A DNA stretch of 4,709 bases from Escherichia coli (GTDB taxonomy: Bacteria > Pseudomonadota > Gammaproteobacteria > Enterobacterales > Enterobacteriaceae), in the NCBI RefSeq assembly GCF_003334785.1, contig NZ_QOWV01000045.1, one strand, 5' to 3'. A program made the translations under genes and the position numbers. The notes under the pieces are model-generated. The model was not told the DNA's origin and ran no database searches. It saw nothing but the letters and a program-made list of their open reading frames with translations. The first letter of the stretch is position 1. Every line of letters begins with the position of its first letter. This document shows, in pieces, positions 72 to 4,709 of this stretch.

Positions 72-143
72 TGGAGCACCTGTGTTGTTCTGAGGTGAGC
101 ATATCACCTCTGTTCAGGTGGCCAAATTCAGTGTGCCACTTCA
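1..143 (-). mobile_element. Left end of an IS3-family insertion sequence (IS911-like), cut by the window edge
   Basis: Read on the minus strand from position 143 the sequence begins TGAAGTGGCACACTGAATTTGGCC, a TG-initiated terminus typical of IS3-family inverted repeats. About 70 nt further in, an ATG (71..69) opens an ORF that runs off the window. The IS911 assignment is from memory. Confidence 0.6.
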
Positions 144-526
144 GTTTTTCACTGATATTCAGGGAACGGTTATGTGAGCTGAATATTCACAGAGGAAATA
201 CAGTGGTGCAGGTAACTCTGGCCTACGAAGCTCGGAAGTAAGCTGCCGGGCGGGGACGGAAGTCCCCGCTTTCCGGAAGTGTGAGGTATTTCAGGGGCAG
301 ACACCCTATATACCAGAAACAGCCGGTCCCGCCCGGGGCCGGCCCCCTGGGGCTAAGGCATTTCCAGCTTTTCAGTCATTTCATTATCAAAATCACATTA
401 AACGGCCGTAATCAGACATGATTTGTGCGCCAACACAGATCATCGTCACAACTTTCAAGTCGCTGATTTCAAAAAACTGTAGTATTCTCTGCGAAACGAT
501 CCCTGTTTGAGAATTGAGGAGGCGAG

Positions 527-820: not shown

Positions 821-904
821 CTGATCGTTTAAGGAATTTTGTGGCTGGCCACGCCATAAGGTGGCAGGGAACTGGTTCTGATGTGGATTTACAGGAGCCA
901 GAAA

Positions 905-996
905 AGTGAAAACCCCGATAATCTTCTTCAACTTTGGCGAGTGCGAAAAGATTACCGGGGCTAACAAGAAACCGTATAGCCAACAATTCAGCTATG
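905..996 (-). ncRNA. copA: CopA antisense RNA (about 90 nt), complementary to the repA mRNA leader (CopT)
   Basis: On the minus strand there is a small 5' hairpin (972..979 pairing with 991..998). It is followed by a long imperfect stem-loop (913..925 pairing with 948..960, 12 bp with one mismatch, 22-nt loop). A U-rich tail then follows (plus-strand 901..912 GAAAAGTGAAAA reads UUUUCACUUUUC on the minus strand), making an intrinsic terminator. A sigma70-like promoter sits just upstream on the minus strand. The ends are approximate. Confidence 0.6.
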
Positions 997-3142: not shown

Positions 3143-3426
3143 CTTATACGGTTAAATTCAGGGATGATGCCCTCAGGGAATGGCTGAAACTGGATAAATC
3201 CGTTCAACAACAGTTCGCAAAAAAACTAAAAAAATGCAGCGAAAATCCTCATATACCTTCAGCAAAACTACGTGGATTAAAAGATTGCTACAAAATAAAA
3301 CTTCGTGCATCAGGTTTTCGTCTGGTCTATCAGGTGATTGATGACATGTTAATTATTGCGGTTGTCGCAGTAGGTAAACGTGAACGTAGTCATGTTTACA
3401 ATCTCGCCAGCGAGAGAATGAGATAG
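3139..3426 (+). CDS. relE: RelE/ParE-superfamily toxin (RelE/StbE-like mRNA interferase, 95 aa)
   Basis: ORF MTYTVKFRDDALREWLKLDKSVQQQFAKKL...KLRGLKDCYKIKLRASGFRLVYQVID...VGKRERSHVY is closely similar, from memory, to E. coli RelE (KLRGMPDCYKIKLRSSGYRLVYQVID...VGKRERSEVY). Same length as RelE and 4-bp overlap with the antitoxin gene. Confidence 0.85.
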   Translation: MTYTVKFRDDALREWLKLDKSVQQQFAKKLKKCSENPHIPSAKLRGLKDCYKIKLRASGFRLVYQVIDDMLIIAVVAVGKRERSHVYNLASERMR

Positions 3427-3435
3427 GGGGTGTTA

Positions 3436-3981
3436 ATGCTTTTAAGTTTTAGTGAGTTAGATGTTCTTATTTATCAGGGGAAGGTTGGGGGTTTATTTCG
3501 TGAAAGAAAAAACGAAAGGATTGCTACAGACATTGATTCCAGAAACAAGTCATCATCAAGCAGTCATGAATATGATTCAGTTTTATCATTTCTATTTATT
3601 TGTGATAATGGAAAAGAAATAAATGTGAATTTAACAAATTGGAATATTAACATATTTCCAGGTCAAGAGATTGTCATTTATTTTGTGGAAAACTCAAAGA
3701 AAAACAAAAAAATACCATACATGATAAAAAACAAAAGCACATCGGAAGTGACTAATAATGTTCAAGAAATGTATAAAGAGTTTTTTTATACATCATACTT
3801 CAAACTGATAATACCTTTCCTTTTAATCATTTCTTACTTTATGTCATCCATATCTGTGGCTATCATGTCATTCGTTTTATATGTCATAATCAGAAGAAGA
3901 ATAGGAAAAGATTTCTTTTCAGAAATAAAAAGGAAAAGGTTAAAAAAAGAAGATATCATGGGGTTAGAGCACGTAATATAG
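3436..3981 (+). CDS. Hypothetical small membrane-anchored protein (181 aa from ATG 3436), AT-rich orphan gene of unknown function
   Basis: Uninterrupted 181-183 codon frame in DNA of roughly 25-30% G+C (by eye), where stop codons should be frequent. GGGGG (3425..3429) lies 6 nt before ATG 3436; GTG 3430 is an alternative start. The product has a polar N-terminal region with a Ser run, one long hydrophobic segment FKLIIPFLLIISYFMSSISVAIMSFVLYVII, then a basic tail RRRIGK...KRKRLKK. I recognise no family. Confidence 0.7.
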   Translation: MLLSFSELDVLIYQGKVGGLFRERKNERIATDIDSRNKSSSSSHEYDSVLSFLFICDNGKEINVNLTNWNINIFPGQEIVIYFVENSKKNKKIPYMIKNKSTSEVTNNVQEMYKEFFYTSYFKLIIPFLLIISYFMSSISVAIMSFVLYVIIRRRIGKDFFSEIKRKRLKKEDIMGLEHVI

Positions 3982-4028
3982 GGGCGACAGGTCCTTATAA
4001 GGGACCGTCCAGGGACCGGAGTTCCATT

Positions 4029-4070
4029 GCTACGCCGGAACCGCCGAAATTTCCGGCGTAGCTCTCTCTT
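4029..4070 (+). terminator. Candidate intrinsic terminator after the AT-rich gene
   Basis: Perfect 12-bp inverted repeat GCTACGCCGGAA (4029..4040) / TTCCGGCGTAGC (4051..4062) with a 10-nt loop, followed by the pyrimidine/T-rich tract TCTCTCTT. A second hairpin, GGTCC-TTATAAG-GGACC, lies at 3990..4006. The U-tract is weak, so the terminator function is tentative. Confidence 0.35.
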
Positions 4071-4088
4071 GCCTGGACGTTCTGTTGT

Positions 4089-4126
4089 GGGGGGTGAGGG
4101 CCAATGGAACGAAAGCGTACGGTAAG
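4089..4126 (+). mobile_element. Terminal inverted repeat (38 bp) of a Tn3-family transposon, Tn1000 (gamma-delta)-like; transposon interior lies to the right
   Basis: GGGGGGTGAGGGCCAATGGAACGAAAGCGTACGGTAAG matches from memory the Tn1000 repeat GGGGTTTGAGGGCCAATGGAACGAAAACGTACGTTAAG at about 34 of 38 positions. It also carries the Tn3-family hallmarks: GGGG terminus, TGGAACGAAA core, ACG..TAAG inner end. Orientation puts the element outer end at 4089. Confidence 0.65.
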
Positions 4127-4507
4127 GGCTCCGTTTGGGAAACGGACAATATTGTACGGTTGCGTTATCGCGGTAGGGTGTACTCCCGCGCTATACGGTG
4201 TTTTCAGGATAATTGGTCTTAATCGGATAACCTAAATGCGATACAGCAAGAGCGACAACTTAAAAGCGATTAAACCTGCCGCCGCCAGAACGGTACAGTC
4301 CCTGACACAGGCACCACTGGTATAATCCAGTAAAGAGCATATGGAGAACTTATCATGTCGTCACGCAACTCTATACATGATTTTATAATGCTGCTCCCGG
4401 CGCTGCTGTTTGTTGGTAAGCGTACAGCCTGAACCGTCTGGTCAGAATCTGACGAATTAGACAAAGTGGTGTCCACCAAATAAGTAGTGGGAACCAAAGT
4501 GTCAGAT

Positions 4508-4636
4508 ATGCAGAAAAATGTGACTCCCGGCAGGCGAAAAGGCTGCCCTAATTATCCTCCCGAATTTAAACAGCAGCTCGTTGCTGCCTCCTGTGAACCC
4601 GGGATATCCATCTCAAAACTTGCTCTTGAAAAGTAA
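4508..4636 (+). pseudogene. Short OrfA-like fragment of an IS3-family transposase (42 codons then stop)
   Basis: ATG 4508 translates to MQKNVTPGRRKGCPNYPPEFKQQLVAASCEPGISISKLALEK and stops. The (Y/F)xxEFK...V...SIS..A pattern is the N-terminal HTH lead-in of IS3-family OrfA proteins, which are normally about 100 aa. A TGAACCG motif 78 bp upstream (4430) resembles an IS3-type end. Weak evidence. Confidence 0.3.
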
Positions 4637-4709
4637 CCGGCTCATTTAAACCGTCTGGTCTGTTTCCTCCGGCTCTACAAAAATAATGTCCATCATTTTT
4701 AATGGACAC

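Follow-up and report, generated by a model that had tools for sequence, protein, structure and literature searches.

The flagged 25-codon micro-ORF of an Escherichia coli plasmid segment: very probably the 5' remnant of a yaeA gene disrupted by an insertion sequence

The described systems closest to the locus analysed here are two insertion sequences of the IS66 family, ISEc22 and ISCro1, the yaeA gene of IncI-complex and IncF-type plasmids and, among small membrane proteins, the Hok/Gef family (PF01848) and the MgrB-type regulators. ISEc22 and ISCro1 share with this locus the GTAAGCG/GTAACCG ends, the 8-bp duplications, the gene order and the nested insertion. Measured against the norm of the IS66 family, nothing is unusual here, and the insertion sequence simply supplies the last four codons and the stop of a short reading frame. 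In the IncI-complex and IncF-type plasmids, the first 20-21 codons of yaeA, its 5' UTR, its Shine-Dalgarno sequence and its -10 element display 90-100% nucleotide identity to the DNA studied here. The gene occupies the same position on these other plasmids, after a replicon and a toxin-antitoxin pair, and converges on yafA and yafB/fopA. The product of yafB is FopA, a FinO-domain RNA-binding protein (PMC7491321). Intact yaeA encodes a protein of 77-81 aa, whereas the present copy breaks off at codon 21 and continues directly into insertion sequence DNA. The Hok/Gef proteins resemble YaeA by their small size, their N-terminal transmembrane helix, their cysteine-containing tail and their plasmid location. 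MgrB-type small membrane regulators combine a single transmembrane segment with a periplasmic cysteine pair.

The window, that is the whole stretch of 4,709 nucleotides that was analysed, is identical to plasmid NZ_AP022179.1 (L001) at 4708 of 4709 positions. The initial annotation of this window had proposed a possible micro-ORF at 4355-4432 (+), encoding a hydrophobic peptide of 25 aa with its own expression signals and reminiscent of type I toxins or leader peptides. The program-made ORF list confirms both the frame and its translation, MSSRNSIHDFIMLLPALLFVGKRTA. An ORF of this length is not unusual: positions 3900-4709 are overlapped by thirteen ORFs measuring 20 aa or more. The comparisons presented below indicate, with very little room for doubt, that the micro-ORF is the 5' remnant of a yaeA gene disrupted by an insertion sequence, and thus an ordinary remnant rather than an independent peptide gene. 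The creation of a junction ORF by an insertion sequence is a routine case. The flagged ORF matters little in itself; short ORFs that end in the termini of insertion sequences need to be checked against relatives carrying the empty site.

The IS66-family insertion and its empty site

Comparison with plasmids by megablast resolves positions 4230-4709 as a mosaic. The segment 3982-4314 is a patchwork of pieces common to different plasmids, among which a fragment of 42 bp at 4271-4312 (+) derives from a RelE/ParE-type toxin gene: it shows 95% identity to positions 2336-2377 of plasmid L009, within a CDS annotated as 'plasmid stabilization protein' (2265-2540). The homology to plasmids L002-L007 then begins at 4315 and stops at 4415/4416. 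This block (4315-4415, +) corresponds to the yaeA cassette, with its -10 element, its 5' UTR and codons 1-20/21. The 25-codon ORF is chimeric. Its native part comprises codons 1-20 and the G of codon 21, and an inserted IS66-family element contributes codons 22-25 (K-R-T-A) and the TGA stop through its terminal inverted repeat, so that the basic end KRTA and the stop, previously regarded as the peptide's own, come from the insertion sequence. The stop does overlap a TGAACCG motif beginning at 4430, as had been observed. This motif belongs to the inverted repeat of the insertion sequence rather than to the ORF, and a similar sequence, TAAACCGTCTGGTC, recurs in the ISCro1 end.

The boundaries of the insertion are visible on plasmid L001. 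Position 4415 of the window is followed there by GTAAGCGTACAGCC..., the left inverted repeat. The right end of the element, ...GCACGCTTAC, is reached 5.1 kb further downstream, at L001 10334, and is followed by GTTTGTTG and then by GGTGGTTAGTTTTGGTGATAATTCTCATGTTTAGGGATGATAAATGTGAC.... The insertion sequence block occupies L001 5187-10334 and the 8-bp sequence GTTTGTTG is found on either side of it, the left copy of this target-site duplication being located at 4408-4415 of the window and the right copy at L001 10335-10342. The rest of yaeA is present in L001 beyond the insertion sequence, 5.1 kb from the stump. Deletion of the insertion sequence together with one copy of GTTTGTTG restores MSSRNSIHDFIMLLPALLFVGWLVLVIILMFRDDKCDKTYREGSFPEFICLHSERSSLRETDSERLNVKYTEIQSQK and an uninterrupted yaeA frame. 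The empty site is provided by NZ_OY754359.1 (L007), which carries an intact ORF of 78 aa, MSLRNSIHDFIMLLPALLLVGWLVLVIILMFRDDKCDKTYREGSFPEFICLHSERSSLRETDSERLNVKYTENNHKNR, and whose positions 590-1602 are colinear with window 3401-4416 at 97.7% identity.

The same insertion is found in NZ_CP069544.1 (L010) as a simple element of 2441 bp, without the nested ISCro1. PGAP annotates in it tnpA, tnpB and an 'ISEc22 family transposase'. The element terminates in GTAAGCG...CGCTTAC, and its inverted repeats are imperfect: 20 of the first 27 bases agree between the left repeat (window 4416) and the right one (ending at L001 10334). Inverted repeats, an 8-bp duplication with its empty site and a tnpA-tnpB-transposase gene set, the latter taken from the PGAP annotation of L001 and L010, assign it to the IS66 family. 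The left end of this ISEc22-like element covers 4416-4632 (+) in the window, with a left inverted repeat starting GTAAGCG, and contains a tnpA gene that starts at ATG 4508 (+) and is truncated. Indeed, ISCro1, another IS66-family element of 2699 bp (L001 5404-8102), is nested at 4633 in this tnpA and has duplicated CTTGAAAA, the left copy of which lies at 4625-4632. This second duplication appears as an 8-bp overlap of the L010-to-L001 alignment at L001 5396-5403 and 8103-8110. The remaining positions 4633-4709 (+) are the left end of ISCro1, with the inverted repeat GTAACCGGCTCATTTAAACCGTCTGGTC.

Among 5426 complete E. coli genomes, two contain the junction between yaeA and ISEc22. The matches of pO157-like plasmids, which start from window 4403, were considered as further instances of the same junction and rejected: they are independent insertions with chance-similar flanks (CTGCAGTTTATAT versus CTGCTGTTTGTTG). 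In the pO157-type plasmids the ISEc22-like insertion is flanked by L014 2488-2500, which matches window 4403-4415 at 9 of 13 positions. A preference for certain targets may be behind this likeness of CTGCAGTTTATAT and CTGCTGTTTGTTG.

The target-site duplication and the empty-site comparison largely refute the proposal of a stand-alone gene for a small hydrophobic peptide, whether type I toxin-like or leader, which is now hardly credible. An intact extended -10 element, a Shine-Dalgarno sequence and an ATG would favor such a gene, as would the hydrophobic composition of its product. Its last four codons and its stop are nevertheless supplied by the repeat of an insertion sequence, the remaining half of the gene is located past that element, and the exact ORF is confined to the two genomes mentioned above.

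The arrangement can be explained as follows. The yaeA gene is a free-standing cassette carried by IncI1, IncK, IncB/O, IncZ and some IncF plasmids downstream of a replicon and a toxin-antitoxin pair, and made up of a predicted extended -10 promoter, a 5' UTR (about 22 nt), a Shine-Dalgarno sequence and an ORF of 77-81 codons. An ISEc22-like element of the IS66 family transposed into codon 21, duplicating GTTTGTTG, and ISCro1 later landed in the tnpA gene of this element. Translation from the native ATG would now run four codons into the inverted repeat and stop at the TGA, and the product, if made, would retain just 12 hydrophobic residues of a helix that normally has 22.

A different fate can be imagined for the stump: its promoter might drive transcription into the ISEc22-like element, in the direction of tnpA and the nested ISCro1, and affect transposase expression, or the truncated peptide might interfere with a YaeA protein encoded elsewhere. 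Promoter, ribosome-binding site and start codon are intact and co-directional with the genes of the insertion sequence, the distance between the stop at 4432 and the start of tnpA at 4508 is just 75 nt, and no convincing terminator lies between them, the sole candidate being a 5-bp stem inside the ORF. This argument is purely positional, however, and the tnpA gene concerned is itself destroyed by ISCro1 at 4633. Given also the rarity of the junction, activity of the remnant is improbable. The stump of the disrupted yaeA gene, if translated, most likely yields a non-functional pseudogene product, which is probably inert.

Expression signals and selection on the yaeA frame

The expression signals attributed to the micro-ORF were correctly located in the window: TATAAT at 4321-4326, GGAG at 4343-4346 (+), 8 nt ahead of the ATG at 4355, and CTGACA at 4302-4307, 13 bp upstream of the -10 element. 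The promoter call had been described as weak on account of a poor -35 element. A standard -35/-10 consensus scan reports no promoter at the flagged ORF; at a spacing of 16-18 bp, the best -35 hexamer agrees with the consensus at 2 of 6 positions and none exceeds this value. The fragment of toxin gene at 4271-4312 lies directly upstream of the yaeA -10 element, where a -35 element would be, and the '-35 region' is therefore debris of a toxin-antitoxin gene. A feature overlooked earlier is the TG ahead of the TATAAT hexamer, which makes it an extended -10 element, TGGTATAAT, at 4318-4326 (+). Since the -35 element is dispensable in promoters of this TGnTATAAT type, a promoter is predicted at this position from the sequence.

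Counts of these motifs are of limited help. TATAAT occurs twice in the window for 1.64 occurrences expected, and the extended -10 element once for 0.10 expected, with at least one occurrence in 18 of 200 shuffles. The support for the -10 and Shine-Dalgarno signals comes from homology and not from occurrence statistics. TATAAT, its 28-nt distance to the ATG and a GAGG/GGAG sequence persist in homologues with 52 differences over 177 aligned coding positions. TATAAT is common to all alleles, including the diverged homologues on L015 and L018, and the TGn extension is confined to the IncI/IncF alleles of yaeA. At the position equivalent to GGAG, L015 and L018 have GAGG, and other IncI1/IncF alleles have TGAG. 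Around these conserved signals the flanking DNA is unrelated, the -35 region included. The promoter-like and ribosome-binding signals can thus be retained as conserved signals of a real small membrane-protein gene, to which the -10 element would lend promoter activity; the part of the proposal that gave them to a peptide gene of 25 aa is abandoned, the native gene having 77-81 codons.

A lack of conservation of the reading frame among homologues had been named as the observation that would speak against the micro-ORF. The frame is in fact conserved, as part of the intact gene, and it is under purifying selection. An exhaustive HMMER scan of 1.84 billion protein representatives returned eight representatives of the yaeA family. 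Two of these are diverged, P0073 with 60 aa and 68% identity and P0075 with 53 aa and 58% identity, and their contigs belong to other plasmid backbones. Between L007 and L015, 52 differences over 59 codons are distributed 15/6/31 by codon position (binomial P = 8.6e-7), with a dN/dS of 0.11 in frame and of 1.48 and 2.32 off frame. Between L007 and L018, 44 differences over 52 codons are distributed 15/10/19 (binomial P = 0.018), with a dN/dS of 0.37 in frame and of 0.79 and 1.86 off frame. Over the range of comparisons made with diverged homologues, dN/dS amounts to 0.11-0.48 in frame and 0.74-2.3 off frame. The 31 N-terminal codons of an IncI2 homologue give a pN/pS of 0.26 in frame versus 1.4 and 8.3 off frame. 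The close IncI/IncF alleles are uninformative in this respect, with 22 variable sites distributed 6/7/9 by codon position and a pN/pS of about 1.2 in all three frames. Because of this ratio, and of frameshifted yaeA variants present in the databases, constraint on the IncI1/IncF alleles may be relaxed.

These last observations could also suggest that yaeA is not a gene at all, and that the window simply contains a junction between an insertion sequence and non-coding DNA, the frame being a chance one in a plasmid segment that spread recently. The lack of any RefSeq/PGAP annotation at the site, the tiny size of the family and the absence of a Pfam match would agree with this view. It is nonetheless very unlikely, as the frame persists in homologues of 58-68% protein identity, in which third-position and synonymous changes are strongly in excess, start codon, Shine-Dalgarno sequence and -10 element are conserved, and the transmembrane segment, the R32-D33 pair and both C36 and C50 are invariant. 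The full set of invariant residues comprises M1, S2, R4, F10, several transmembrane residues, R32, D33, C36, T39, Y40, P46, I49 and C50. On these sequence comparisons, intact yaeA appears to be a real, selection-constrained gene for a small membrane protein.

Architecture of YaeA and comparison with toxins and regulators

In the relatives where the segment 4315-4416 is uninterrupted, the same ATG opens an ORF of 77-81 codons with a conserved core of about 60 codons. The window peptide matches the 20-21 N-terminal residues of the family (MSSRNS[IV]HDFIMLLPALL...), and the 40 nt upstream are also homologous. The diverged homologues end in ...SLR*, which makes the 18-residue tail of the IncI1 protein a lineage-specific extension. 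AlphaFold2, applied to the family alignment, predicts a helix over residues 11-30 (pLDDT 85-89) and a tail of low confidence, with a mean pLDDT of 63.6. YaeA is modelled as one N-terminal transmembrane helix followed by a short tail with two invariant cysteines. The window copy, which ends at native codon 21, lacks the full helix and the C36...C50 tail. The hydrophobic stretch reported for the micro-ORF does exist, and represents just the first 12 of the 22 residues of the yaeA transmembrane helix: the uncharged run measures 22 residues in the restored protein versus 12 in the stump. A run of 12 residues is too short to span a membrane, which is a further argument against a stand-alone hydrophobic peptide.

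The resemblance to type I toxins that had been suggested did not withstand profile searches, as no significant match to any toxin family was obtained with Pfam, NCBIfam, PADLOC, PHROG or an HMM of 54 real Hok sequences. Sequence searches with YaeA in NCBIfam, PADLOC and the PDB produced nothing significant, and no significant Pfam family was found either, the best one being DWORF at 0.064. A local resemblance to the Hok/Gef proteins exists, between FRDDKCDKTYREGS and TRKSLCEIRYRDGH. The full-length protein approaches the Hok profiles below threshold (PHROG 251, E = 0.23; hhalign 26% over 18 columns), a weak likeness that speaks for the toxin proposal. It is countered by a score of 1-4 bits with the Hok HMM and by the absence of the Hok-like YR[DE]G motif from the diverged P0073 and P0075. 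Kinship with Hok/Gef was therefore rejected as homology. Unlike hok, yaeA has no mok-like upstream frame, and its 5' UTR would be only about 22 nt long as judged from the position of the -10 element. Folding of the yaeA mRNA reveals no unusual structure with respect to expectation (z = 0.43). Kinship with MgrB was considered as well and rejected (hhalign 1.9% over 3 columns, no Pfam or NCBIfam match), the likeness being limited to the general architecture.

Distribution and genetic context of yaeA

The segment 4315-4416 is unannotated and present on several hundred plasmids of the IncI/IncF type. A search of 5426 complete E. coli genomes detected yaeA sequence in 352 (about 6%), in 344 of them over at least 80% of the query, and almost always on plasmids. 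None of 40 sampled records carries a RefSeq annotation at yaeA. In protein databases the family is designated 'hypothetical protein', with YaeA as its UniRef name; the name yaeA presumably follows the gene-naming scheme of R64/ColIb-P9. One IncI record labels a neighboring gene yafA. A literature search found no paper naming yaeA together with 'plasmid', and the peptide does not appear in the portions of the Salmonella small-protein census supplements that were available as text. Being constrained yet devoid of RefSeq annotation and of an assigned function, yaeA merits consideration in small-protein studies of IncI/IncF plasmids. A modest by-product of this analysis would thus be a selection-constrained small membrane-protein gene missed by RefSeq and repeatedly hit by insertion sequences.

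A role as leader peptide had also been envisaged for the micro-ORF. No conserved co-directional gene is found downstream. In IncI1 plasmids, yaeA is followed by convergent ORFs and then by yafA and yafB; in L005 and L007 by an acetyltransferase gene; in L015 and L018 by unrelated small ORFs, and in the window by the insertion sequence. A leader-peptide role is unsupported because the downstream neighbors differ in every context, and this also weighs against a peptide gene standing on its own.

A search for an overlapping antisense RNA had been suggested as a check. A search of the window with Rfam detects no RNA at the flagged ORF, the only hit being CopA, elsewhere. A weak promoter-like motif, TTCACA-18-GAGAAT (9/12), is located on the minus strand inside the intact yaeA-like ORF, at the homologous position in L015 (4082-4111) and L018 (4061-4090); its equivalent in yaeA is GTCACA...GAGAAT (8/12) at L007 1622-1651 (-). 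About one to two such sites per region are expected by chance, and both hexamers overlap conserved codons. Folding did not reveal a conserved terminator for the putative antisense transcript. In the lineage of the window the motif lies beyond the insertion sequence; the antisense question is irrelevant to the stump. Across all lineages, the synonymous sites of codons 26-33 (GTG AT. ATT CTC AT. TTT.GG GAT) are unusually conserved. The motif and this conservation could reflect an antisense promoter or simply codon conservation.

The intact cassette could conceivably represent an unrecognised plasmid function, in which a self-contained promoter expresses a single-pass membrane protein of 53-81 aa, acting either as a small membrane modulator or as a new module resembling type I toxins, whose antisense promoter would lie within the gene. 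The protein would carry the two invariant cysteines. This prospect is a doubtful one. If it were true, the insertion in the window would be an inactivation event and not a neutral accident.

Two database proteins show other interruptions of yaeA. P0016 reads from an ISCro1-like end into yaeA codon 6-7, and its N-terminus matches a minus-strand ORF at window 4566-4709. In P0074, yaeA is cut at codon 27 and continued by the tail ALLQIVGGDKLIIPFC, which we take to be the translation of an IS26 end. With at least these two other independent insertions, the gene is recurrently disrupted.

Rearrangements were also noticed around the intact gene. IncI1 plasmids contain a direct repeat of about 95 bp with about 90% identity (L004 4107-4201 and 4864-4958), one copy spanning the 3' end of yaeA and the other being internal to yafA, which is encoded on the opposite strand. 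The 3' end of the yaeA mRNA would be partly complementary to the yafA mRNA. IncF plasmids of the L003 type (L003 2717-2811) resemble the outcome of a deletion between the repeat copies, with a YaeA protein of 81 aa bearing another tail and a truncated yafA. In IncI2 plasmids, a diverged, TTG-initiated homologue of the YaeA transmembrane segment is found behind GGAGG. It exists as an ORF of 44 aa followed by a second transmembrane-containing ORF in L008 (1491-1625), as an internally deleted form of 24 aa in L012 and L013 (around 1490-1570), and as one fused protein of 81 aa with a different cysteine-rich C-terminus, P0076 (L021 3001-3246). A comparison of these forms suggests recombination within a repeated GTGATAAT(T/C)CT(C/G)ATG segment.

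Several further features were observed in the remainder of the window. Directly 3' of the Phd/YefM-RelE/ParE pair, an AT-rich ORF of 183 aa with a C-terminal hydrophobic segment (3430-3981, +) is annotated only as a hypothetical protein and is shorter or called differently in related plasmids. According to the annotation of L001, the end of an IS1203 transposase gene precedes the first position of the window by about 260 bp. A truncated CDS of the Hok/Gef family, SrnB-like, is found at 131-241 (+), annotated at L001 902-1012 with a translation ...SLIFRERLCELNIHRGNTVVQVTLAYEARK; a genuine type I toxin remnant therefore exists in the window, at its opposite end. The CopA antisense RNA of an IncFII-type replicon is located at 904-995 (-) (Rfam, 101.7 bits). 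Just downstream of CopA, a short ORF (1013-1087, +) ends at the repA start, and part of it is annotated by PGAP as a hypothetical protein of 15 aa (L001 1811-1858). By its position we take this ORF to be presumably the Tap leader peptide of R1-type replicons, in which case it would be a genuine leader micro-ORF within the window.
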